Part shown: positions 16,843 through 59,050 of the stretch, piece after piece
How the letters are laid out: each line of letters opens with the position of its first letter
Position numbering within the stretch: position 1 is the first letter of the stretch
DNA from: an uncultured Alphaproteobacteria bacterium
GTDB lineage: Bacteria > Pseudomonadota > Alphaproteobacteria > Rs-D84
DNA: 64,000 nt
NCBI GenBank assembly: GCA_946188105.1
Contig: CAMHTQ010000004.1
Span: forward strand, 41,890-105,889
Direction: 5' to 3'
The notes under the pieces: model-generated
The model's database searches: none
Seen by the model: only the letters and a program-made list of their open reading frames with translations
What the model was told of the DNA's origin: nothing
Program-made: the position numbers and the translations under genes

Positions 16843-18312
16843 ATGATTGATTTAACAATAGTTGAAGCATTGAAAAAACTAAAAGCACGCGAAATATCCG
16901 CAACAGAATTGACACGTGCGCATCTTTCCCGTATTGAAAAATTCGGGTCTGAATTAAATTGCTATATTACAACAACACCTGAACGTGCATTATCCGATGC
17001 GGCGGCGGCGGATGCTCGTTATGCGTCTGGCGAAGCAAAAGTTTTAGACGGTATTCCAATTGCGATGAAGGATTTATTTGCGACATGTGGAATTCGCACA
17101 ACGGCTGCATCACGCATGCTGGAAAATTTTGTTCCAGAATATGAATCAACAATTTCACAAAAATATATTGATGCCGGAACAGTATTGTTGGGCAAGGCAA
17201 ACTTGGACGAATTTGCAATGGGCACGTTTTCTAAAACTTCCTATTTTGGTGCTCCTGTCAGTCCTTGGCAACGTGAACGTCGCTTGACCGCTGGTGGTTC
17301 ATCTGGCGGAACAACATCGGCTGTGGCGGGCGGTCTTGCAATGGGCGGAACCGGAACCGATACTGGTGGTTCGATTCGTTTTCCTGCATCCATTACTGGA
17401 TTAGTTGGTGTAAAACCAACATATGGTTTGTGTTCTCGTTGGGGTTGTGTTGCATTCGCATCCAGTTTAGATACCCCAGGTCCAATCGCACGTACTGTTG
17501 ATGATGCTGCATTGTTATTATCAATTATGGCGGGACATGATCCAAAAGATTCAACCAGCAGCCCAAATCAAAATTTCCACGTCGACGGCGAATTAGAACC
17601 AATTTTGGGTAATGGAAAAAAATTGCGTATTGGTATAATCAAAGAATTCAAAGATGTTGAAATCTCGGCTGATATGAAACGAATATTCGATGCACGTGTT
17701 AACGATTTAAAATCTGCTGGTGCTGAAATTGTTGAGGTTTCAATTCCAAATATCCTTGATGCATTGGCGGCATATTACATTATCGCTCCGGCCGAGGCAT
17801 CATCAAACCTGGCACGTTATGACGGTGTTCGTTATGGTTTGCGTGTCGAAGGCAACGATATTTATGACACATATAAAAAGACACGTGCAGCTGGCTTTGG
17901 CGAAGAAGTCCAACGTCGTATGATTATCGGAACCGCTGTGTTATCTTCATCCTCATACGATGTATATTTCATGCAGGCAGCACGCGTTCGTCGTTTAATC
18001 GCAGATGCATTCAACCAAGCATTCGAACAATGCGATTTGATTGTATGCCCTGCTGGTGCAGGAACCGCAATGCCATTAGATTCTGATCTGACGCCATTGG
18101 AATATTACGCATTGGATTTATTCACCGTTGCAATGAATTTGGCTGGTATCCCAGCGGTGAGTACCCCTGCAGGACTGGCTGAAAACAAATTACCATTGGG
18201 TATGCAAGTTGTAGGAAAACGTTTTGATGATTTACGTACATTACAACTGGCAAAACATATCCAACAATTCAGTGGTGTTGATAATCGTCCAACAATAATA
18301 ATGGGGAAATAA
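16843..18312 (+). CDS. gatA: Glutamyl-tRNA(Gln) amidotransferase subunit A
   Basis: Amidase signature ..GGSSGG..GTDTGGSIR... Confidence 0.9.
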   Translation: MIDLTIVEALKKLKAREISATELTRAHLSRIEKFGSELNCYITTTPERALSDAAAADARYASGEAKVLDGIPIAMKDLFATCGIRTTAASRMLENFVPEYESTISQKYIDAGTVLLGKANLDEFAMGTFSKTSYFGAPVSPWQRERRLTAGGSSGGTTSAVAGGLAMGGTGTDTGGSIRFPASITGLVGVKPTYGLCSRWGCVAFASSLDTPGPIARTVDDAALLLSIMAGHDPKDSTSSPNQNFHVDGELEPILGNGKKLRIGIIKEFKDVEISADMKRIFDARVNDLKSAGAEIVEVSIPNILDALAAYYIIAPAEASSNLARYDGVRYGLRVEGNDIYDTYKKTRAAGFGEEVQRRMIIGTAVLSSSSYDVYFMQAARVRRLIADAFNQAFEQCDLIVCPAGAGTAMPLDSDLTPLEYYALDLFTVAMNLAGIPAVSTPAGLAENKLPLGMQVVGKRFDDLRTLQLAKHIQQFSGVDNRPTIIMGK

Positions 18313-18326
18313 AGAGTATAAAAAAA

Positions 18327-18402
18327 TGGTGGCCAGAAGTGGAATCGAACCACTGACACAGGGATTTTCAGTCCCTTGCTCTACCAACTGAGCTATCTGG
18401 CC
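18327..18402 (-). tRNA. tRNA-Phe (GAA)
   Basis: 76-nt cloverleaf GGCCAGATAGCTCAGTTGGTAGAGCAAGGGACTGAAAATCCCTGTGTCAGTGGTTCGATTCCACTTCTGGCCACCA. Anticodon GAA, encoded CCA. Confidence 0.9.
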
Positions 18403-18515
18403 ATCCGTGAGAAGCATAATATAGTATAAAATTCTAAAAAGCAAGAAAAAATATATTTAATCTTGCAAAAGGTGTGTTAAAATAAGGTATAAACAAAAGT
18501 ATAAAGGGTAAAAAA

Positions 18516-20039
18516 ATGTACACGATAAAAGGCAAAACAGGTGATTGGGAAGTAGTGATTGGACTCGAAACGCATATCGAGGTTTTATCAAATAGCAAGA
18601 TTTTCAGCGGTGCATCTGCAAATTATAACCCATCGGTTGCCCCAAACACCCAGGTTTCCATGGTTGACGCGGCCATGCCTGGTATGTTACCTGTATTAAA
18701 TGAATACTGTGTTGACCAGGCAATTAAATTTGGTCTGGGTATCAATGCAGAAATTTCTCGTGTCAGTCGCTTTGCCCGTAAACAATATTTTTACCCTGAC
18801 CTGCCCCAAGGTTACCAAATTTCACAACCTGCCGAAGAACCACCTGTCGTTGGTCGCGGTTGGATTGAAATTTTAGGCGATGATGGCAACCCTAAAAAAA
18901 TTTTAATTGAACGCGCACACATGGAACAAGATGCTGCGAAAAACAAACACGATATGCACCCATCAAAATCTTTTGTTGATTTGAACCGTTCGGGTGTTAT
19001 GTTGCTGGAAATCGTAACATTTTTGGATACAAAAAATCCTGAAAACAATTCATACATCACATCTCCTGACGAGGCAGAAAGATACCTGCGTGCGATTCGT
19101 GAATTGGCACGTGCATTGGGTGTATCCAAGGCCAATATGGAGGAAGGTTCCATGCGCGCAGATGTCAATGTATCTGTGAAACGTGTTGGTTCAAATACAT
19201 TTGGCACACGTACAGAAACAAAAAACATGGTGTCTTTCAAATTCATTAAAACCGCTATTGAATACGAGGCACGTCGTCAAATAGAAATCTTGGAAAACGG
19301 TGGCACAGTATCCCAAGACACAATGCGTTATAACCAAGGTGATGGCACAACATCTGTATTGCGCAGCAAAGAAGATGCATTGGATTATCGTTATTTCCCA
19401 GATCCAGATTTATTACCATTGGTAATTACAGATGAACAAATTGAACGCGTTCGTCGTACTATGCCAGAATTACCTGCGGCCACACGTACACGTTATATCG
19501 AAAAATTTGGTTTACCAGAATACGATGCCGCTCGCTTAACTGAAACAGTTGATATTTCACGTTGGTTCGATACTGCGGTTGGAAACAAACCAGAACGTGC
19601 CAAGGCAATTGCAAACTGGATGATTTCTGAATTATTTGCACATCCTGAAAACTTTGATATCACAAACGAGGTACGTGAACGTCCTGCTGACGAACCACGT
19701 ATTATCACACCAGAAAACTTGGCTGAATTGGTTGATATGATATCTGCAAACGAAATCAACGGTAAACAAGCCAAAGAAATCTTTATCAAAATGTTGGATG
19801 GTGAAACCGGCACACCAAAAGAAATCGCTGATAAATTTGGTATGAAACAAATGACCGATGTGTCTGCAATTGAAAAGGTTATCGACGATGTTATCGCTGC
19901 AAATCCATCACAGGTTGAACAATATAAATCTGGCAAGGTTGGATTGTTTGGATTCTTTGTTGGTTCCGTGATGAAGGCAACCGGTGGCAAAGCAAACCCA
20001 GCTACAGTTAACGAGATATTGAAAAAGAAACTGGGTTAA
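18516..20039 (+). CDS. gatB: Aspartyl/glutamyl-tRNA amidotransferase subunit B
   Basis: ..WEVVIGLETHIEV.. N-terminus and a GatB/YqeY C-terminal domain. Confidence 0.9.
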   Translation: MYTIKGKTGDWEVVIGLETHIEVLSNSKIFSGASANYNPSVAPNTQVSMVDAAMPGMLPVLNEYCVDQAIKFGLGINAEISRVSRFARKQYFYPDLPQGYQISQPAEEPPVVGRGWIEILGDDGNPKKILIERAHMEQDAAKNKHDMHPSKSFVDLNRSGVMLLEIVTFLDTKNPENNSYITSPDEAERYLRAIRELARALGVSKANMEEGSMRADVNVSVKRVGSNTFGTRTETKNMVSFKFIKTAIEYEARRQIEILENGGTVSQDTMRYNQGDGTTSVLRSKEDALDYRYFPDPDLLPLVITDEQIERVRRTMPELPAATRTRYIEKFGLPEYDAARLTETVDISRWFDTAVGNKPERAKAIANWMISELFAHPENFDITNEVRERPADEPRIITPENLAELVDMISANEINGKQAKEIFIKMLDGETGTPKEIADKFGMKQMTDVSAIEKVIDDVIAANPSQVEQYKSGKVGLFGFFVGSVMKATGGKANPATVNEILKKKLG

Positions 20040-20673: not shown

Positions 20674-21969
20674 ATGAAAAAATTCTATATAAAAACTTTT
20701 GGTTGCCAAATGAATGTATATGATGGACAACGCATCGCTGCGATGCTGGAACATCATGGTTTTATACAAACAGATAATGTTGCCGATGCTGACATAATTC
20801 TGTTAAACACATGTGCAGTGCGTGCCAAGGCAACCGACAAAGTTTATTCTGCATTGGGACGTATTCGTCTTGCAAAAAAGCCCGATGCAATATATGGAAT
20901 TATTGGATGCGTTGCTCGTGAATCTGGCAGTGATGCATTTAGAAAAATCAAAGATTTAAATTTCGTACTGGGGCCACAAAGTTATCATAAATTACCAGAA
21001 ATATTATCAGATCCAGATAATAAATTATTAGATATAAATTTGGGCGGTATTGAAAAATTTGATGAATTACCACCTATATCAACATCGCCTTTGGTTGCAT
21101 ATATTCCTGTCCAAGAAGGTTGTAATCATTGTTGCACATATTGCATTGTTCCATATACACGTGGACCTGAAATATCACGTCCATTTTCTGATATAATGGC
21201 GGAAACAATGCATGCAGCCGACATTGGTGCAATTGAAATTTGTTTCCTGGGACAAAATGTAAATGGATATAAATTTACCGATGAATCTGGAAAAACATAT
21301 AAATTATCCGATGTAATCCAAGAAACCGCAAAAATTGATTCGGTAAAACGTATCAGATTTACATCCAGTTACCCAACCGAAATGACAGATGATTTAATCA
21401 ATTTATTTGGTCACGAGAAAAAATTATTGCCATTTTTGAATATGCCAATTCAAAGTGGTTCTGATAATATTTTAAAGAAAATGAATCGTCAATATAACAT
21501 TGATGAATATATGGCACTTATCAACAAATTCAAAACCGTTTGCCCAGACATTCAAATATCCAGTGATTTCATTGTTGGATTTCCTGGGGAATCAAACGAA
21601 GATTTTGAACAAACATGCGATATTGCAAAACGCGTTGGTTACATAAATTCATATTCATTTAAATATTCGCCACGTCCACATACGGCTGCGGCAATTATGC
21701 AAAATCAGATTCCAGAAAATATAAAAAGCGAACGTCTGATAAAACTGGATAGCATACTAAACGACAGACAACGTGAATTTAATTTATTTTGTGTGGATAA
21801 AACATTTGATTGTCTGTACGAAGGCCCCGATAAAACAGGCACCCATCAAATTTACCGTACTCCATATATGCAGCCATGTATTGTGACGTCCAACACCCCC
21901 AGTCCAATGGCACGTATCAAAATTACATCAGCAAACAAATCATGCTTGCACGGTAAAATTATTGATTAA
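20674..21969 (+). CDS. miaB: tRNA-2-methylthio-N6-dimethylallyladenosine synthase (MiaB family radical SAM methylthiotransferase)
   Basis: MTTase N-terminus (FGCQMN), radical-SAM CxxxCxxC (CTYCIVPYTRG) and a TRAM C-terminus. Confidence 0.85.
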   Translation: MKKFYIKTFGCQMNVYDGQRIAAMLEHHGFIQTDNVADADIILLNTCAVRAKATDKVYSALGRIRLAKKPDAIYGIIGCVARESGSDAFRKIKDLNFVLGPQSYHKLPEILSDPDNKLLDINLGGIEKFDELPPISTSPLVAYIPVQEGCNHCCTYCIVPYTRGPEISRPFSDIMAETMHAADIGAIEICFLGQNVNGYKFTDESGKTYKLSDVIQETAKIDSVKRIRFTSSYPTEMTDDLINLFGHEKKLLPFLNMPIQSGSDNILKKMNRQYNIDEYMALINKFKTVCPDIQISSDFIVGFPGESNEDFEQTCDIAKRVGYINSYSFKYSPRPHTAAAIMQNQIPENIKSERLIKLDSILNDRQREFNLFCVDKTFDCLYEGPDKTGTHQIYRTPYMQPCIVTSNTPSPMARIKITSANKSCLHGKIID

Positions 21970-41693: not shown

Positions 41694-42008
41694 CTACCAT
41701 CCCTGATTCGTTAAATCTAATTCTAATCTTGCAGCATCCGACATACGCGACAAATCCCATGCAGGTTCCCAAACTAATTTTACATCAACCGATTTAACAC
41801 CCTTGACTTTTGATACAACATCTTTAACTTGCTGTAACAATTCTTCCATCATGGGACACGTAGGACTGGTGAACGTCATTGTAATATCAACATGTTCACG
41901 CTTAATAACAATATCATAAATCAACCCCATATCCCAAATGTTTACTGGGATTTCAGGATCAAAAATTGTTTTTAATGCATTTATAATATCATCTTTGATT
42001 ATCGCCAT
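41694..42008 (-). CDS. sufT: Fe-S assembly protein SufT (DUF59/MIP18 family)
   Basis: ..DPEIPVNIWDMGLIYD...TSPTCP.. is the DUF59 signature. Confidence 0.75.
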   Translation of the reverse strand: MAIIKDDIINALKTIFDPEIPVNIWDMGLIYDIVIKREHVDITMTFTSPTCPMMEELLQQVKDVVSKVKGVKSVDVKLVWEPAWDLSRMSDAARLELDLTNQGW

Positions 42009-51929: not shown

Positions 51930-52568
51930 ATGGAAAAACAAGAAATAAGAACATTTGGTCGTCGTCATGGCAAAAAATTATCTGCCCGCAAACAATTTTT
52001 GTTGGACAATATTTTGCCGGCCTTTTTGCCAAAAAATATCAAAAACACCGGGAATTTAATTCTGGAAATTGGTTTTGGTAATGGTGAACATGTACGCGAT
52101 TTGGCAATACGTCACCCCGATTCGATAATTATCGGTGCAGAACCATTTATGAACGGTGTTGCCGCCTTACTTTCGGCTATAACAAGCGAATCGGATAATC
52201 AAATTTTACAAGAATACAAAAATATTCGTATTTGGCCGGACGATGTCCGTAAATTATTACACGATTCGGAATTAAAATTTTCTGAAATTTGGGTTCTGCA
52301 CCCTGACCCTTGGCCCAAGGCCAGACATGAAAAACGTCGGTTATTAAATTCTGATTTCTTGAAATTGCTGGGCACATTTCTGGATACAAACGGACAAATA
52401 ATTATCGGCACAGACCATTGGGAATATTTCGATTGGATTGTGAACGAGGTTAAAAAAACTTCTCTATATGCATCGTTTCCGCCACTTTCTGTTATTCACA
52501 CACGTTATGCTGAAAAAAATATGGCCGAAACGGACACCCCAAAATATTTGGTTTTAACCAATCAATAA
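51930..52568 (+). CDS. trmB: tRNA (guanine46-N7)-methyltransferase
   Basis: ..EIGFGNGEH...GAEP.. SAM-binding TrmB pattern. Confidence 0.8.
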   Translation: MEKQEIRTFGRRHGKKLSARKQFLLDNILPAFLPKNIKNTGNLILEIGFGNGEHVRDLAIRHPDSIIIGAEPFMNGVAALLSAITSESDNQILQEYKNIRIWPDDVRKLLHDSELKFSEIWVLHPDPWPKARHEKRRLLNSDFLKLLGTFLDTNGQIIIGTDHWEYFDWIVNEVKKTSLYASFPPLSVIHTRYAEKNMAETDTPKYLVLTNQ

Positions 52569-53230
52569 CTGACAAAACATTTTAGCTTTAAATCCGGACA
52601 CCCAGCACAAGCCAACCTGTACACCTGCTCTGCCCTAGTATAACTCTCATTTAACAAAACATGTAATTCCATATCTGGATTCGCATTCCATCCAGACAAT
52701 GCCGCATAAATGCGCCCAGTAAAATCAGATTTTTCTTTATCTTCATGGCTTAATATCAGTAACAATGCCGATGCCTGTATTTTCTTTAACGATTCGAAAA
52801 CCCGTTCCCAATCTAATGGCCAAACATCAAATATATCCAAACCTATACACAAATCTTTGTTAAAAAACAAATCCGCACGCACAGACACAAACGAATCGAC
52901 GAATCGTTCTAAATCAGACAATTTAACAATAATTTGTGCAGCATCAGCCCCATTTTTAAATGCTGTCTTTATATCAACCGCCAATTCCGACATAGTATGT
53001 TCATTGATATTTGCAACATTAAAACGGGTCATCAATTTTAAATTTAACTTTTCTAACCATGGCCAAACAACCTTTATCTCATTTGGTGCCACCGATACTG
53101 CAGGAATCTTCATATCGGTAATAAATTCGGCCGCCCCAGCCAAATCAGCCCCATCACTGCCATCTGGTACCCATAATGATATTGTTTTTACAACGTCCTC
53201 GTCATTAAAAATTTCTTTTATATCTATCAT
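52562..53230 (-). CDS. Hypothetical protein
   Basis: 222-aa ORF convergent with trmB, overlapping it by 7 nt. I recognise no family. Confidence 0.4.
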   Translation of the reverse strand: MIDIKEIFNDEDVVKTISLWVPDGSDGADLAGAAEFITDMKIPAVSVAPNEIKVVWPWLEKLNLKLMTRFNVANINEHTMSELAVDIKTAFKNGADAAQIIVKLSDLERFVDSFVSVRADLFFNKDLCIGLDIFDVWPLDWERVFESLKKIQASALLLILSHEDKEKSDFTGRIYAALSGWNANPDMELHVLLNESYTRAEQVYRLACAGCPDLKLKCFVSY

Positions 53231-53272
53231 AATACTTTCTAGTTTATCATAAATATGATATAATTAAAACAA

Positions 53273-54190
53273 ATGAAATTATCAGAACGTGTAAATCTTT
53301 TATTGCTTGGAACATTATGGACATTGGCCATAGTGCTGATATTGGATTTTTGGTTAAATACGGCATATAACTTTAACATTTTTTCCAGCGACCATTGGAA
53401 ATTCGTATCTAATTTACAGGCCACAAATCAACATATCGCTTCCGGATTTTATGTTGCAATTATATTGGCTGTGGTTGCTTGTATCACTGGTTTATATGTC
53501 CTATTTCGTCCTAAATTCAGGAAAATAGAATTAAACCAACCAACAAAACCAACATCTGTTCCACAACCAACACAACAACCAATTCAAAAACCGGAACCTG
53601 TTCAGCAACCAAATAACATTGCACCAGCACAACCGGTACAACCAAACATTCAAAAACCTGTGATGCAACGGCCACCACATTTACATATACAAATGCCACA
53701 AAACCCACCCAGACAACCGGTTACAAACACAAATCCACAACCATCTGTAACCACTAAACCAAAACACCCAGAATTGCTGTATGTGGATGAAATGCGGGCT
53801 GCATTTGACAAAAATGGGTACAAGGTATTATCACCCAAGATTATTTCTGGGACACCATTGTCTTTGATAGCATTGGGAACAAATGAAACATTATGGTTGG
53901 GGGCTGCAAATATTTCTCACGAACAAATGACAGATATCATTTTGTCATTTAAAAAGATTTTCCAAGAAACCCTAGAAGATATTGAAATTGATATAAATTC
54001 GTTTATTATAAACCCAACAGACACAGATTCTGTGGATGCAATTTTGGACCTTAAAACGATTGAAGAATTACCGTCTGCAATTGCAAATATTCCAAATGCC
54101 CCAGAGTCCGAGTTTGATAAAGAATCTGACAATATGAATGCTTTTGCTGGCTATATTGAAACAGTATTAACATATTTGGGAAATAAATAA
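53273..54190 (+). CDS. Hypothetical membrane protein with a Pro/Gln-rich linker and a C-terminal globular domain
   Basis: Two N-terminal TM helices, then a PQ-rich region, then ..NGYKVLSPKIISGTPLSLIALGTNETLWLG... First gene of a four-gene operon. Confidence 0.5.
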   Translation: MKLSERVNLLLLGTLWTLAIVLILDFWLNTAYNFNIFSSDHWKFVSNLQATNQHIASGFYVAIILAVVACITGLYVLFRPKFRKIELNQPTKPTSVPQPTQQPIQKPEPVQQPNNIAPAQPVQPNIQKPVMQRPPHLHIQMPQNPPRQPVTNTNPQPSVTTKPKHPELLYVDEMRAAFDKNGYKVLSPKIISGTPLSLIALGTNETLWLGAANISHEQMTDIILSFKKIFQETLEDIEIDINSFIINPTDTDSVDAILDLKTIEELPSAIANIPNAPESEFDKESDNMNAFAGYIETVLTYLGNK

Positions 54191-54693
54191 TGAAAATATC
54201 AGAAAGCACTGCAATCGCAAGAATATCTGATCTGGGTATGGATGATATGCCGGTGGTTGAATATACTCCAAAACCAACAAAACTGCCAGAAAATTGGTTC
54301 ACTAAATATCGTGAATTGTGCCATAAATTTATGGAATCTTTGACAGAATGTTCCACAGAAATCGCATTTATGAATTTATCACAAAATGAATTTATGGCGC
54401 TGATTACAGGTCGTGCCCTGCCACGCAACACATCAATCAGATGGCGGATTCCAATCACAATGGGTGGGGAAATGTCAATCGACAATATGTTTCTATGCCG
54501 CACTTTTCCACACTCACAAAATCTGGACAGATTTATTCTCGAACAGTCAGGCAACGAAACAATATGGTTACCCAATCCGGCCAAGGCAATATACGTTCCT
54601 TCACATACGGCCAGTGGCGGTGCCGGCGGTAACGCAACATCTGACCGTCTGTCACAAATGGCGGCACAATTATCTGGTAATACCCTGGAATAA
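54190..54693 (+). CDS. Hypothetical protein
   Basis: Start overlaps the upstream stop (TAATG). I recognise no family. Confidence 0.45.
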   Translation: MKISESTAIARISDLGMDDMPVVEYTPKPTKLPENWFTKYRELCHKFMESLTECSTEIAFMNLSQNEFMALITGRALPRNTSIRWRIPITMGGEMSIDNMFLCRTFPHSQNLDRFILEQSGNETIWLPNPAKAIYVPSHTASGGAGGNATSDRLSQMAAQLSGNTLE

Positions 54694-54712
54694 AAGCGAT
54701 AAAGGTGTACAA

Positions 54713-55147
54713 ATGAATTTGGATGAATTTTTATCTACTATAAAAACCAAAGGTGCACTTATTTGGGGGCCTTGCAATGTTCGTGCCATAGAATATGCAA
54801 ATTCACTGTTACAACAAAAGAAATGTGCAATGCTGCCAAAGTTTATGCTGGATTTATACACAAAAACGGCTGGCATCAACCTGGGTGTCGGTTATATTTT
54901 TGGACCATCTGAATTACCAAACGGGAAAAATTTTCCAATCCCAGATATTGTTAAAATAAACGATGAAATTCGTAATATTCCGTCCCTACACAATAAAACA
55001 TTATTTGCTAGAAACGATTTATTTTGGTTTGCATTTGATGTGTTTGGTAAATGTTATATGTTGAACAACACAACTGGTACAATATTACGTACATATGATG
55101 ATCCATACCGTGCATTGTACGATTGTTTAATGGGTGGAAAAATATAA
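54713..55147 (+). CDS. Hypothetical protein
   Basis: The ATG with a GGTG RBS, in-frame within the longer ORF-track ORF that begins at 54413. Confidence 0.4.
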   Translation: MNLDEFLSTIKTKGALIWGPCNVRAIEYANSLLQQKKCAMLPKFMLDLYTKTAGINLGVGYIFGPSELPNGKNFPIPDIVKINDEIRNIPSLHNKTLFARNDLFWFAFDVFGKCYMLNNTTGTILRTYDDPYRALYDCLMGGKI

Positions 55148-55148
55148 A

Positions 55149-55352
55149 ATGAAAAAAATATCTATATCTTTATCAGGACACCAAACCAGTATTTCACTGG
55201 AACCAGAATTTATCGCAGAATTACAACGCATAGCGCACGAAAACAAAAAATCTGTCGCATCCATTATTTCTGACATAGATTCATCACGCCCAGCACACTC
55301 TAACCTGTCATCCGCTATACGTGTATGGATATTGAATTCAGTTCGTAAATAA
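55149..55352 (+). CDS. Ribbon-helix-helix (RHH_4-like) small DNA-binding protein
   Basis: MKKISISLSGHQTSISLEPEF..LQRIA...SVASIIS.ID...NLSSAIRVWIL matches the alphaproteobacterial RHH family pattern. Confidence 0.55.
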   Translation: MKKISISLSGHQTSISLEPEFIAELQRIAHENKKSVASIISDIDSSRPAHSNLSSAIRVWILNSVRK

Positions 55353-55355
55353 AAA

Positions 55356-57299
55356 TTACTTCTTTTTTTCTATTCTATATGCAATAAATCCGCCAATTAC
55401 ACTAATCATCAAAATTATTAAAAACCATGCATCACGACCTAATAATCTGTATAATGTCATATGACTGCCACGAACTGTGCCATCTAAAATACCTGACTGC
55501 CCTATTGGTAAACTGGATATAATTTTACCATCCGCACCAATAAACGCACTAATACCAGAATAATTAGCCCTGATTACAGGCATTCCATATTCAATTGCCC
55601 CCCGACGTGCCATATCCATATGTTGATATGTTCCAGGTGTCGCACCAAACCAAGTATCATTTGACACATTTATAATTGCATCTGCAACCTCATCTTTAAT
55701 AACCGCATCTGAAAAAATAATTTCATAACATACAGCCGGTGCAAAAACGAATTTCTTGTCTTTATTTATCTGTAACGCAATTGTTCTGGCACCACCCCCA
55801 GATGTTAAATTAGCAGGTGTCGGCACAAACTTAATCGGGCCATATTCACCAAACGGAACCAAATGGGATTTACCATAAAATTCAATCATTTTTCCAGAAC
55901 TATCAGATATAGCCAATGCGTTATAAACCTTTCTGTCATAATCAACAACATTTGCACCAATTAAAACCGGTATTTTTAATTGCTTCGCAATCGGCATATA
56001 ATCATCAGGCATTAACGCAAATGGATAAGATGTTTCAGGATATAAAGCAACATCTACATTTGACACATCACCAGCCATTTTTACCAATTCTTCGACCCGA
56101 GCTTCTGCCCGATTTAATGCATCCGCACGCGATAAAGCAATCTTGGACTCTTGTGTTGTAACTGGTTGCACAATACGCACAACAATCGAATTTTCACCCA
56201 AATTTGATACAGATATATTGTTATACCCATATCCCATTCCAACACACAATAAAATAAAGAAAAATCCAAAAGAAACCCAATTTACTTTGTTTGCCCTGTT
56301 ATGTAAAATCTGTACAACCGACGCAATCATACCCATTATAACAAATGTCAGCCCCAATGCACCAAACAAAGACATAGAGTTAGAAATCACACCACTGGAC
56401 AATGTTATATTTGAAATTGGATTCCATGGAAATCCAGTTAAAAACCATTCACGCAACCATAAAACAAATGTACAACCAAATGCGAACACAAATGGCTTTA
56501 CGCCTGATTTAGTGTATATACATTGTGTAAATACATACGGAATAACAAAGAATATAATACCAAAAATTCCAATTCCGATTAACGCTGGCACGGTCCAAAC
56601 TGCAAATTGTTTTGTTATTTCTGGAACAACATAAATAGAATGCACAGTCCACCAAAACATAGAAATTGAATACATGGCACCAAACGGCATTGCCCGTAAC
56701 CAAGCCCGCCAAAAACCGATTTTTTCATTATCTAAACACAATAACCAATATGCACCTGCAATTGCTAAAACTGTTACCCACCACATATTAAATGGCGCAA
56801 ACCCTAATGACGCAACCCCACCAAACAATGCACATAAAAGATATTTCCACCATGCAAATTTTTTTGTATTTTCATCCATATATGGATTTTTTATTCTCAA
56901 TTTTTTCAATACAGCAATTTCTTTTGATTCCATCACTTTGGCCTGAGCATCCGTTAAATGATCATATCCCAACAAATGAAACATGCCATGCACAACCATA
57001 TGCGCAACATGATCTTCGACAGAAATTTTAGCATCTTTGGCCTCGTGAACAACAGTATCTAATGAAATATAAATATCACCCAACAATATATCATCACCTA
57101 ATTCAAAAGATAAAACATTCGTGGGCTTATCCATATCACGATACATTTTATTCAATGCATGAATTTCATCATCATCAACCAAAGTAATCGAAACTTCAGA
57201 TTTTTTATATTTTATTCCAACGACCGCATTTGCAATTTTTTCAAAATTGATATTATATTTTTTCCAACGCTTATCATTATAATTAACAAAAACCTTCAT
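55356..57299 (-). CDS. lnt: Apparent in-frame fusion of the rRNA maturation RNase YbeY (N-terminal ~140 aa) with apolipoprotein N-acyltransferase Lnt
   Basis: YbeY motif ..HMVVHGMFHLLGYDH.. in the first ~140 aa. From ..MDENTKKFAWWK.. onward there is the Lnt multi-TM region plus a CN-hydrolase domain. No stop separates them in the 647-aa ORF. Confidence 0.7.
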   Translation of the reverse strand: MKVFVNYNDKRWKKYNINFEKIANAVVGIKYKKSEVSITLVDDDEIHALNKMYRDMDKPTNVLSFELGDDILLGDIYISLDTVVHEAKDAKISVEDHVAHMVVHGMFHLLGYDHLTDAQAKVMESKEIAVLKKLRIKNPYMDENTKKFAWWKYLLCALFGGVASLGFAPFNMWWVTVLAIAGAYWLLCLDNEKIGFWRAWLRAMPFGAMYSISMFWWTVHSIYVVPEITKQFAVWTVPALIGIGIFGIIFFVIPYVFTQCIYTKSGVKPFVFAFGCTFVLWLREWFLTGFPWNPISNITLSSGVISNSMSLFGALGLTFVIMGMIASVVQILHNRANKVNWVSFGFFFILLCVGMGYGYNNISVSNLGENSIVVRIVQPVTTQESKIALSRADALNRAEARVEELVKMAGDVSNVDVALYPETSYPFALMPDDYMPIAKQLKIPVLIGANVVDYDRKVYNALAISDSSGKMIEFYGKSHLVPFGEYGPIKFVPTPANLTSGGGARTIALQINKDKKFVFAPAVCYEIIFSDAVIKDEVADAIINVSNDTWFGATPGTYQHMDMARRGAIEYGMPVIRANYSGISAFIGADGKIISSLPIGQSGILDGTVRGSHMTLYRLLGRDAWFLIILMISVIGGFIAYRIEKKK

Positions 57300-57334
57300 T
57301 CCGTCACCTCTATATGCATTGTTTCTGCGTTTTT

Positions 57335-57697
57335 TTATTTTTTACCCAGCCCTGTTTTTTTTGCAATTTTTGAACGTAACTTTGCATATCCAGGTGCAAC
57401 CACAGGATAATCATCTGGTAAATCCCATTTTGCTCGATATTGTTCTGGGGTCATATTATAACGTCTTTTTAAATATCTGCGTAACATAACATGCCAAGTT
57501 CCATCTTCCAGACATTGAATTTTATCATGCTGTACCGAATCGGCAATTTGTTGTGGTGTAACAGATGTTCCACGCAATGTGGCTCTGGCCGCATTTACCG
57601 CATCAGTCATAGACAAAGACGGATCGTGTGCCATAGCCGCAGCAGCCAAATTAGCAACAGCCAATGTAAACTCACTATTTTTTATATTATTTACCAT
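57335..57697 (-). CDS. mucR: MucR/Ros-family transcriptional regulator
   Basis: ..TPEQYRAKWDLPDDYPVVAPGYA..RS.IAKK.GLG is the Ros/MucR C-terminal signature. Confidence 0.75.
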   Translation of the reverse strand: MVNNIKNSEFTLAVANLAAAAMAHDPSLSMTDAVNAARATLRGTSVTPQQIADSVQHDKIQCLEDGTWHVMLRRYLKRRYNMTPEQYRAKWDLPDDYPVVAPGYAKLRSKIAKKTGLGKK

Positions 57698-57769: not shown

Positions 57770-59050
57770 ATGGAAAAAGATACCAGACCACTTGCTGATT
57801 TAATGCGACCCTCGGACATTTCTGAAATTGTCGGCCAAACGAATTTACTGGGCGAAACTGGACTTATTCGTCGCATGGTAGAAAACCATAAATTATCAAA
57901 TTTGATACTATGGGGTCCCCCAGGATGTGGTAAAACAACAATCGCACGCGCTTTGGCACATACGGTTGATATGGACTTTGTTCCAATGTCTGCGGTATTT
58001 TCTGGCACCAGCGACATAAAAAAGGCAATGGATGCCGCACGAATGAATCGAGAAATTGGACGTAACACCCTTTTATTTATCGATGAAATTCATCGTTTTA
58101 ATAAAACACAGCAAGACACCTTGTTACCATATCTCGAAGATGGCACTGTGGTATTTATGGGTGCAACAACAGAAAACCCCAGTTTTAATTTAAATAACGC
58201 ATTATTATCACGTTGTCATATTGGTGTTTTAACATCACTGAGCACAGATGATTTAATGATTTTAATTGAACGCGCCGAGAAATTTTTAAATAAAAAATTA
58301 CCATTAACAATGGATGCAAAAATACACCTGGCCCAGATGGCTGATGGCGACGCAAGATTTTTATTAAACACCGTTGAATATTTAATCAATGCAAACTTTA
58401 AAAACGATTTAGATTCCGACGCATTGGATAATGCGATTCAAAAACGCGCACCGTTGAGTGATAAAGCCAGCGATGAACACTATAATTTAATATCTGCTGT
58501 TCATAAATCATTACGTGCCAGCGACACTGATGCCGCGTTATATTGGGTTGCCCGTATGATGACATCCGGCCAAGATGCACGTTATATATTCCGCAGATTA
58601 ACACGCTTTGCAATGGAAGATATCGGTCTGGCTGATCCAAACGCGGTACAAATGGCGATTGCCACATGGCAGGCATACGAAAGAATGGGCAGTCCCGAAG
58701 GCGACATCGCATTAACAGAATTGGTCGTATATTTGGGTACCGCACCAAAAAGTGCCGCATGCGAACGTGCATTACACGATTCATATAATACCGCAAAAAA
58801 AACTGGCAGCCTGCCCCCACCAAAAAACATTTTAAATGCACCAACAAAAATGATGAAAGACATGGGCTATGGCGCAGGATACATTTATGAACCCGATACC
58901 GCATCTGGCTTTTCTGGTCAAAATTGTTTCCCAGAAAAAATGTCCAGGACCAGATTATATACCCCAGTCGAACGCGGTTTTGAACGCGAGATAAAAAAAC
59001 GTATCGATTATTGGGACAATTTACGTGAAAAAATAAACGGAAAAAAATAA
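57770..59050 (+). CDS. rarA: Replication-associated recombination protein A (RarA/MgsA AAA+ ATPase)
   Basis: Walker A GPPGCGKTT, ..FIDEIHRFNK.., and a MgsA C-terminal domain. Confidence 0.85.
   Translation: MEKDTRPLADLMRPSDISEIVGQTNLLGETGLIRRMVENHKLSNLILWGPPGCGKTTIARALAHTVDMDFVPMSAVFSGTSDIKKAMDAARMNREIGRNTLLFIDEIHRFNKTQQDTLLPYLEDGTVVFMGATTENPSFNLNNALLSRCHIGVLTSLSTDDLMILIERAEKFLNKKLPLTMDAKIHLAQMADGDARFLLNTVEYLINANFKNDLDSDALDNAIQKRAPLSDKASDEHYNLISAVHKSLRASDTDAALYWVARMMTSGQDARYIFRRLTRFAMEDIGLADPNAVQMAIATWQAYERMGSPEGDIALTELVVYLGTAPKSAACERALHDSYNTAKKTGSLPPPKNILNAPTKMMKDMGYGAGYIYEPDTASGFSGQNCFPEKMSRTRLYTPVERGFEREIKKRIDYWDNLREKINGKK

Follow-up and report, generated by a model that had tools for sequence, protein, structure and literature searches.

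Can a factor of ribosome maturation and an enzyme of lipoprotein maturation be made as one and the same protein? This question is raised by a stretch of 64,000 nucleotides (nt) from an uncultured Alphaproteobacteria bacterium (positions 41,890 to 105,889 of contig CAMHTQ010000004.1, assembly GCA_946188105.1; hereafter, the window), in which the genes of YbeY and of the apolipoprotein N-acyltransferase Lnt share one reading frame, ybeY::lnt. YbeY is a zinc-dependent single-strand endoribonuclease and a maturation factor of the 30S subunit; it is nearly universal, and its exact molecular role is still debated. Lnt adds the third acyl chain to lipoproteins and works on the periplasmic side. The initial annotation of the window offered three explanations for their union, i.e., a genuine bifunctional fusion, the loss of the ybeY stop codon with Lnt still initiating internally, or a sequencing or frameshift artefact. 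We favor the first one, with a probability of roughly 85%: a genuine and old fusion, in which one ribosome-binding site and one ATG lead to a single polypeptide of 647 residues made of an intact YbeY (residues 1–137), a linker of about 12 residues, and an intact Lnt.

The persistent linkage of ybeY and lnt in one operon was already known (bioRxiv 10.1101/2023.03.20.533420). By contrast, a YbeY-Lnt fusion did not turn up in full-text literature searches, an earlier mention in the YbeY review of Liao et al. (2021), the main one, being possible. The difference lies in the architecture: both enzymes belong to textbook families, and the sequences are public but named solely as Lnt.

One reading frame, two complete enzymes

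The fusion lies on the minus strand, as do all the features described in this section. According to both the open reading frame (ORF) listing and the sequence, it consists of a single uninterrupted ORF of 647 codons, from an ATG start to a TAA stop (55356..57299). A Shine-Dalgarno (SD) sequence, GAGGTGA (57304..57310), is located 4 nt upstream of the ATG at 57299, and the energy of the anti-SD duplex at this start is −7.1 kcal/mol, the quartiles of the window's 48 long ORFs being −7.0 and −3.7 kcal/mol. The initial annotation had described a complete YbeY running without a stop into a full Lnt, and the domain content bears this out. In the product, Pfam recognizes YbeY at residues 15–134 (PF02130, E = 1.4e-34, 119 bits for a cut-off of 25), LNT_N at residues 160–322 (PF20154, 65.6 bits for a cut-off of 27.1), and CN_hydrolase at residues 434–611 (PF00795, E = 6.5e-21, 75.3 bits for a cut-off of 23.2). 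Moreover, each half exceeds the cut-off of its own NCBIfam equivalog, i.e., TIGR00043 for YbeY (E = 2e-37, 128 bits against 45) and TIGR00546 for lnt (216 bits against 133).

The coding sequence can thus be divided into five successive parts. The YbeY metallo-endoribonuclease domain (residues 1–137, 56889..57299) is followed by the junction or linker (residues 138–149, NPYMDENTKKFA, 56853..56888), which is the least conserved region and holds a non-conserved methionine, Met141 (56877-56879). Then come the Lnt membrane domain with the transmembrane (TM) helices 1 to 7 (residues 150–372, 56184..56852), delimited from LNT_N, the predicted helices, and the structural matches given below, and the periplasmic nitrilase-like CN-hydrolase domain (residues 373–615, 55455..56183). 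The last part (55356..55454) carries a predicted TM helix 8 (residues 622–646), which corresponds to H8 of the E. coli Lnt, a cytoplasmic tail, EKKK, and the stop codon. The YbeY motif quoted in the initial annotation is present in the protein as HMVVHGMFHLLGYDH, and its remark that no corC/tlyC separates ybeY from lnt is correct. In the window, tblastn with the E. coli proteins (E <= 1) found no corC/ybeX, no phoH/ybeZ, no second ybeY, and no second lnt, the sole YbeZ match being a chance alignment of 14 residues (E = 0.30).

We mapped the catalytic residues by pairwise alignment to the E. coli proteins and counted their invariance over 121 family sequences. In the YbeY half, R59, H114, H118, and H124 of E. 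coli correspond to R54, H104, H108, and H114, including the zinc-binding H-x3-H-x5-H (codons of the three histidines within 56958-56990), and all four are invariant (121/121). The same holds for the Lnt half, whose Glu-Lys-Cys triad has been defined in E. coli (PMC5500888): E267, K335, and C387 correspond to E422 (codon 56034-56036), K477 (55869-55871), and C524 (55728-55730), and E343, W415, and F416 to E485, W550, and F551, again without any exception in the 121 sequences. The median identity to the window protein is 71% for the YbeY domain versus 53% for the Lnt domain. The divergences of the two halves are strongly correlated (r = 0.88), so that both have diverged in step and share one common history.

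The structural model leads to the same division. An AlphaFold2 model computed from an alignment of 40 family sequences (predicted local distance difference test, pLDDT, 84.9; predicted template modelling score, pTM, 0.74) shows a compact YbeY fold (residues 1–133), a low-confidence linker (around residues 134–149, with pLDDT < 50 at residues 141–144), and eight long helices. The first seven are predicted at residues 150–166, 173–188, 196–222, 226–251, 268–287, 309–333, and 338–365, and an alpha/beta domain (residues 373–615) is inserted between TM helices 7 and 8. Using Foldseek, the large part of the model matches the Lnt structures of E. coli and P. aeruginosa (template modelling scores of 0.70–0.79, and of 0.71–0.79 for those of E. 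coli), while the small part matches the E. coli YbeY 1XM5 (score of 0.81, root-mean-square deviation of 2.6 A, 40% identity), as well as 1OZ9 and 7Y7O. A phmmer search against the sequences of the PDB agrees with Foldseek (1xm5 at 4e-25). Hence, for both enzyme families, the 647-residue protein conforms to every sequence and structure criterion that could be tested. The fusion protein is probably bifunctional; both activities would be retained in vivo, and its YbeY half would be the only YbeY of the cell.

The junction across the family

A search in 5.8 billion proteins returned 1577 matches at E <= 1e-10. The 120 matches listed all have 640–681 residues, cover 96–100% of the query at 52–99% identity, and contain PF02130, PF20154, and PF00795. 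The same architecture is thereby present in at least 120 protein clusters at 90% identity, drawn from the NCBI, ENA, JGI, and Logan assemblies. Because it recurs in at least 120 independent protein clusters, it goes far beyond chance. Together with the invariant catalytic residues of both halves, this recurrence supports the genuine bifunctional fusion that the initial annotation had placed first among its options. At the 50% identity level, an exhaustive search yields about eight full-length fused representatives, down to 34% identity (P0121-P0124, P0126, P0128, P0135, and P0138). Where the sources give a name, the homologues are just called 'apolipoprotein N-acyltransferase [Alphaproteobacteria bacterium]'; the NCBI labels of the deeper representatives are 'Rickettsiales bacterium' or 'Alphaproteobacteria bacterium', and the three loci returned from genome collections belong to the rumen metagenome-assembled genomes (MAGs) RUG11963 and RUG14456 and to one 'Alphaproteobacteria bacterium' MAG. 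The fusion is shared by an entire clade of uncultured Alphaproteobacteria from the gut and the rumen.

This recurrence is also what decides on a sequencing, assembly, or frameshift error joining two adjacent genes. In a related AT-rich lineage in which ybeY and lnt are still separate (locus L017, protein P0152), just 2 nt separate the two genes, so that an error in a single base might in principle look like a fusion. But the in-frame architecture is found in at least 120 clusters from four sources, including a protein 99% identical to that of the window, with an identical junction and from a separate source (P0001, Logan). Moreover, the linker lengths in the family differ by whole codons, and the insert present in many lineages (see below) is conserved as protein. 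We therefore reject the artefact for the family and give it a negligible chance for the window itself.

The same searches bear on the possibility that YbeY survives in the fusion just as a cytoplasmic appendage of Lnt, degenerate or put to another use, while a separate canonical ybeY does the housekeeping. The search for a second copy covered just 64 kb of the genome, which leaves space for such a gene. Against this, the zinc ligands and Arg54 are invariant (121/121), and evolution is slower in the YbeY half than in the Lnt half. The deep lineages keep the fusion in the ancestral ybeY slot, directly downstream of miaB. Finally, among the top 150 matches of the 50%-identity search, each YbeY-containing match either runs on into Lnt or is a truncated fusion fragment, and none is a full-length free-standing YbeY from the fused clade. 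Three candidates for such a free-standing YbeY were rejected: P0147 stops inside the linker, P0150 loses similarity just past the linker, and P0180 (124 residues) is shorter than the YbeY domain. A mere appendage is thus very unlikely, and we keep the reading of two probably working halves.

A further explanation, also raised by the initial annotation, is that the ybeY stop was lost but that Lnt is made separately by initiation at Met141 (MDENTKKF), in which case the fusion would be merely formal. An in-frame ATG does lie near the beginning of Lnt (56879-56877, minus strand), but its properties are those of an ordinary codon. The equivalent methionine exists in 4 of the 121 family members, most linkers having no methionine at all. 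As to an internal ribosome-binding site before it, the upstream anti-SD energy is −2.7 kcal/mol, a background value, matched or bettered by 43% of 419 ordinary internal in-frame ATGs of the window. Met141 aligns with the lysine of the YbeY tail NPYKD* in the unfused L017, and not with the lnt start codon; it is therefore part of the YbeY tail. Around the junction, promoter and terminator signals do not exceed the background either, with 14 promoter-like sites found versus 13.6 expected.

The initial annotation had suggested a comparison of the ybeY-lnt region with its relatives, and this comparison is informative at the DNA level. In four fused relatives (L001-L004), the junction is read through, in ORFs of 642–670 codons, whereas the ybeY TAA stop is seen in L017. 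The in-frame ATG, GTG, and TTG codons of these four loci are all located inside TM1, except one ATG in the L003 linker, which is preceded by no SD signal (+0.6 kcal/mol). In L001 and L002, the sole in-frame start is inside TM1, and the SD-like candidates of L003 and L004 are all inside TM1 as well. Taken together, these data lead us to reject separate initiation at MDENTKKF, to which we leave scarcely any probability, and to retain the synthesis of YbeY and Lnt as one chain.

The linker deserves a closer description. In the subclade of the window, it has about 12 residues, of variable sequence past a conserved NPY. In sister sequences (P0039, P0042, P0045, P0087, P0112, and others; locus L003), a cysteine-rich insert, absent from the window protein, is found between NPY and TM1. 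Over the family, the segment from the linker to TM1 contains at least 3 Cys in 64 of 121 sequences and a CPG motif in 58 of 121, while at least 8 Cys are present in 16 sequences. The forms of this insert extend from C-x4-5-CCPG to CxCGCGxKCNCKNCSCCxCPGDK, and a basic amphipathic helix, e.g., TISFFKKLKIRENGFWQY, typically comes next. The insert could be a metal-binding or a membrane-surface element. Since this insert is conserved at the protein level, the junction must be translated in frame and be under selection as protein.

Translation as one chain does not by itself exclude that the chain is then cut in the linker, which would release a soluble YbeY and reduce the consequence of the fusion to an equal co-expression. 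The linker is the least conserved and the least confidently modelled segment, and the clade includes unfused descendants (see below), so that free YbeY and free Lnt are viable. On the other side, no recognizable conserved cleavage motif is found in the linkers, and the sister subclades have elaborated theirs with the Cys-rich insert and the basic amphipathic helix, which suggests a functional tether. We hold cleavage to be rather improbable and continue with the uncleaved chain.

Origin of the fusion

In E. coli, the arrangement is miaB-ybeZ(phoH)-ybeY-ybeX(corC)-lnt, with separate genes. The fusion shares with this cluster, which is also that of many Proteobacteria, the two enzymes, their order, and their orientation, as well as, in the ancestral arrangement, a position downstream of miaB. 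It differs from it in being one ORF; in the cluster, the genes are separate, four or five in number, and corC lies between those of the two enzymes. The canonical ybeZYX-lnt organization is not found in the window, where phoH and corC are missing and the neighbors of the fusion are a mucR gene and a gene of the RHH_4 family.

Two intermediate arrangements are found in relatives. In L017, miaB, ybeY, and lnt are separate, and phoH and corC are already gone, as in the window. The junction reads …KKLNIKNPYKD-TAA-AA-ATG-AAG… (the lnt product begins with MKIKE), the two genes lying 2 nt apart in different frames. L017 thus differs from the window by its TAA stop and its frame offset, and its proteins are 45% (YbeY) and 34% (Lnt) identical to the window protein. 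In three deep fused lineages (L012, L013, and L015, i.e., P0135, P0128, and P0126), miaB directly abuts ybeY::lnt, and gatCAB comes before it in two of them. The linker of the window, counted from NPY to GFAPF, has 25 residues, which equals the YbeY tail and the Lnt N-terminus of L017 summed. This equality fits the loss of the stop by a small indel in the A-rich spacer, and not by a deletion.

The window itself retains the ancestral neighbors at a distance. Using the L013 proteins in tblastn, we located gatA and gatB (16843-20036, plus strand) and, just after them, miaB (20683..21960, plus strand), with 59–64% identity to their L013 counterparts. Their strand is opposite to that of the fusion, and 33 kb lie between, whereas in the deeper lineages they immediately precede it; this implies a rearrangement in the lineage of the window, possibly an inversion. 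The upstream neighbor of the fusion in the window is mucR; L004, a relative with 54% identity on a contig of 886 kb, has mucR as well, with a tetratricopeptide repeat (TPR) gene in between. Downstream, the RHH_4 block of the window and of L004 is the same as in the locus of P0128.

We propose the following scenario, the order of which would be as given here. The fusion would go back to an ancestor of the fused clade, whose members are uncultured Alphaproteobacteria, AT-rich and associated with hosts. The loss of phoH and corC from miaB-phoH-ybeY-corC-lnt would have left ybeY and lnt 2 nt apart; then, a small indel would have removed the ybeY stop codon and merged the two frames; and, in the lineage of the window, a later rearrangement would have shifted miaB away and brought mucR upstream. 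Such a series of gene arrangements would also illustrate how a fusion can arise from a compacted operon.

The phylogeny of the Lnt domain (neighbor-joining only, 145 sequences, rooted on E. coli) is consistent with an old fusion. The main fused clade obtains a bootstrap of 100%, and the clade including the fused P0128 and P0135 obtains 84–87%; P0126 also groups with the main fused clade, P0128, and P0135. The bootstrap run including P0152/P0145 gave a numerical warning for very distant pairs.

Several points weigh against this reading as a whole. Five unfused Lnt (P0134, P0139, P0141, P0143, and P0149) are nested in the fused clade beside P0126, with 98–100% bootstrap, and the genes upstream of them encode unrelated proteins, not YbeY. 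Hence, the fusion can be dispensed with or reversed, and the idea of a functionally required tethering loses weight. One old fusion followed by a secondary separation is the most parsimonious account, but a single origin is not proven: the mechanism would easily allow several independent fusions, since no more than 2 nt separate the genes before fusion. In P0138, which joins the fused clade at 34–35% bootstrap, ybeY and lnt may have fused independently. On the full tree, P0152/P0145 came out as the sister group of the fused clade, but this position fell to 22% bootstrap and was abandoned, so that the sister position of the L017 Lnt is weak in trees that are neighbor-joining only. Furthermore, the persistence of the fusion protein as a single uncleaved polypeptide is presumed rather than observed, a second free-standing ybeY could exist outside the 64 kb of the genome searched, and the unfused descendants suggest that operon compaction may have produced the fusion in a nearly neutral way.

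Some observations were made beside these unfused or divergent members. Small-protein genes lie directly upstream of the unfused lnt (L007 1102-1626, L008 1040-1537, L010 519-1016, and L009 3868-4404). The small products of L007 and L010 are Cys-rich, and those of L007 and L009 have a hydrophobic, signal-like N-terminus. As candidates for a diverged YbeY, the genes upstream of the nearest unfused Lnt (L007-L010) were rejected, since they are unrelated and have no Pfam match at E <= 0.1. A few kb downstream, a Cas9 (990 residues)-Cas1-Cas2 locus is present in both L007 and L008. P0138 (L014 258-2231) is a GC-richer fusion with an MlaD fragment upstream and DksA and thioredoxin genes downstream. 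Finally, in L016 (2807-4719, P0145), lnt and a ybeY encoding 135 residues are adjacent but convergent; the linkage hence persists where the orientation rules out co-transcription.

A probable membrane location of YbeY and the genes around the fusion

What would the fusion change for YbeY? In E. coli, the N- and C-terminus of Lnt are both cytoplasmic (PMC5500888), and the model of the fusion shows this same arrangement. Because the Lnt N-terminus is cytoplasmic, the YbeY domain should be on the cytoplasmic side, and the four Lys/Arg residues of the linker are consistent with the positive-inside rule. By homology and from the model, YbeY is most likely anchored at the cytoplasmic face of the inner membrane, about 12–16 residues away from it. 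There, rRNA and 30S subunits would still be within its reach, and YbeY and Lnt would be made in a 1:1 ratio from the single polypeptide.

Membrane-anchored RNases are known in bacteria, RNase Y being anchored by an N-terminal transmembrane helix and RNase E by an amphipathic membrane-targeting helix. By analogy, the tethered YbeY would be a membrane-anchored RNase, comparable in principle to these two. In each case, an RNA-processing nuclease would be held at the cytoplasmic face of the membrane, restricting the site of processing. The nuclease families are unrelated, and the anchor differs in kind: here, it is a complete second enzyme and not a dedicated anchor. YbeY has another known fusion partner, since YbeY-Era fusions exist in Clostridia, Selenomonadales, and Thermoleophilum and have been taken as the sign of a functional relationship (PMC10582724). 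As in these proteins, YbeY forms the N-terminal module, and its fusion partner is one that is encoded in the vicinity. In the window, this C-terminal partner is Lnt and not an Era GTPase with its KH domain. Era, a soluble GTPase of ribosome assembly, obviously shares a function with YbeY, whereas Lnt is an integral membrane enzyme of lipoprotein maturation without known link to the ribosome.

Is the permanent tethering of YbeY to the membrane functional, rather than a neutral by-product? We consider this unlikely, and the unfused descendants are the reason for which we keep its probability low. If it were true, the surface of the membrane would be the site of the final stages of 30S maturation and of ribosome quality control; or else, the role of YbeY would be tied to the membrane or the envelope and coupled to the maturation of lipoproteins. 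The Cys-rich insert and the amphipathic helix of the sister linkers would then be part of the adaptation. In either case, it would also offer, for the first time, a mechanistic approach to a long-standing puzzle, i.e., why ybeY is linked with lnt, corC, and further genes of membranes or lipids.

Whatever its cause, a YbeY covalently joined to an integral membrane enzyme constitutes a natural experiment on whether YbeY can work from the membrane. By the 'Rosetta stone' logic, the fusion hints at a functional or regulatory tie between ribosome maturation and envelope biogenesis. It is also of value for asking why ybeY stays linked to membrane genes. The meaning of its conserved neighborhood with metabolic enzymes has been called 'enigmatic' (PMC10582724). 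On the practical side, it calls for caution in annotation: because the sources name these proteins only 'apolipoprotein N-acyltransferase', name-based annotation would miss YbeY in these genomes.

The genes that now surround the fusion are also partly conserved. A regulator of the Ros/MucR family (57335..57697, minus strand; PF05443, 1.1e-27) lies 35 nt upstream of it, with the same neighbor in L004 at 54% identity. The promoter and terminator scan found no terminator-like site in the 35-nt gap, and mucR is probably co-transcribed with the fusion. Divergent from mucR, an MgsA/RarA AAA+ ATPase gene (57770-59050, plus strand) is found, and both are kept in L004 at 54% identity. On the other side, an RHH_4 (ribbon-helix-helix) gene (55134..55352, plus strand; PF13467, 4.3e-20) is convergent with the fusion and ends 3 nt from its stop. 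It is kept beside the fusion in L004, L005, L006, and L013, with an overlap of 56 nt between the two genes in L013. The window has a G+C content of 37% and, according to Rfam, two tRNAs and no rRNA gene. A whole block (52583-55352), composed of RHH_4 and uncharacterized ORFs (54190-54693, 53273-54190, and 52562-53230), accompanies the fusion clade-wide, even at 38% identity (L013, L004). Within this block, the 305-residue product of the ORF 53273-54190 carries a long Pro/Gln-rich segment.

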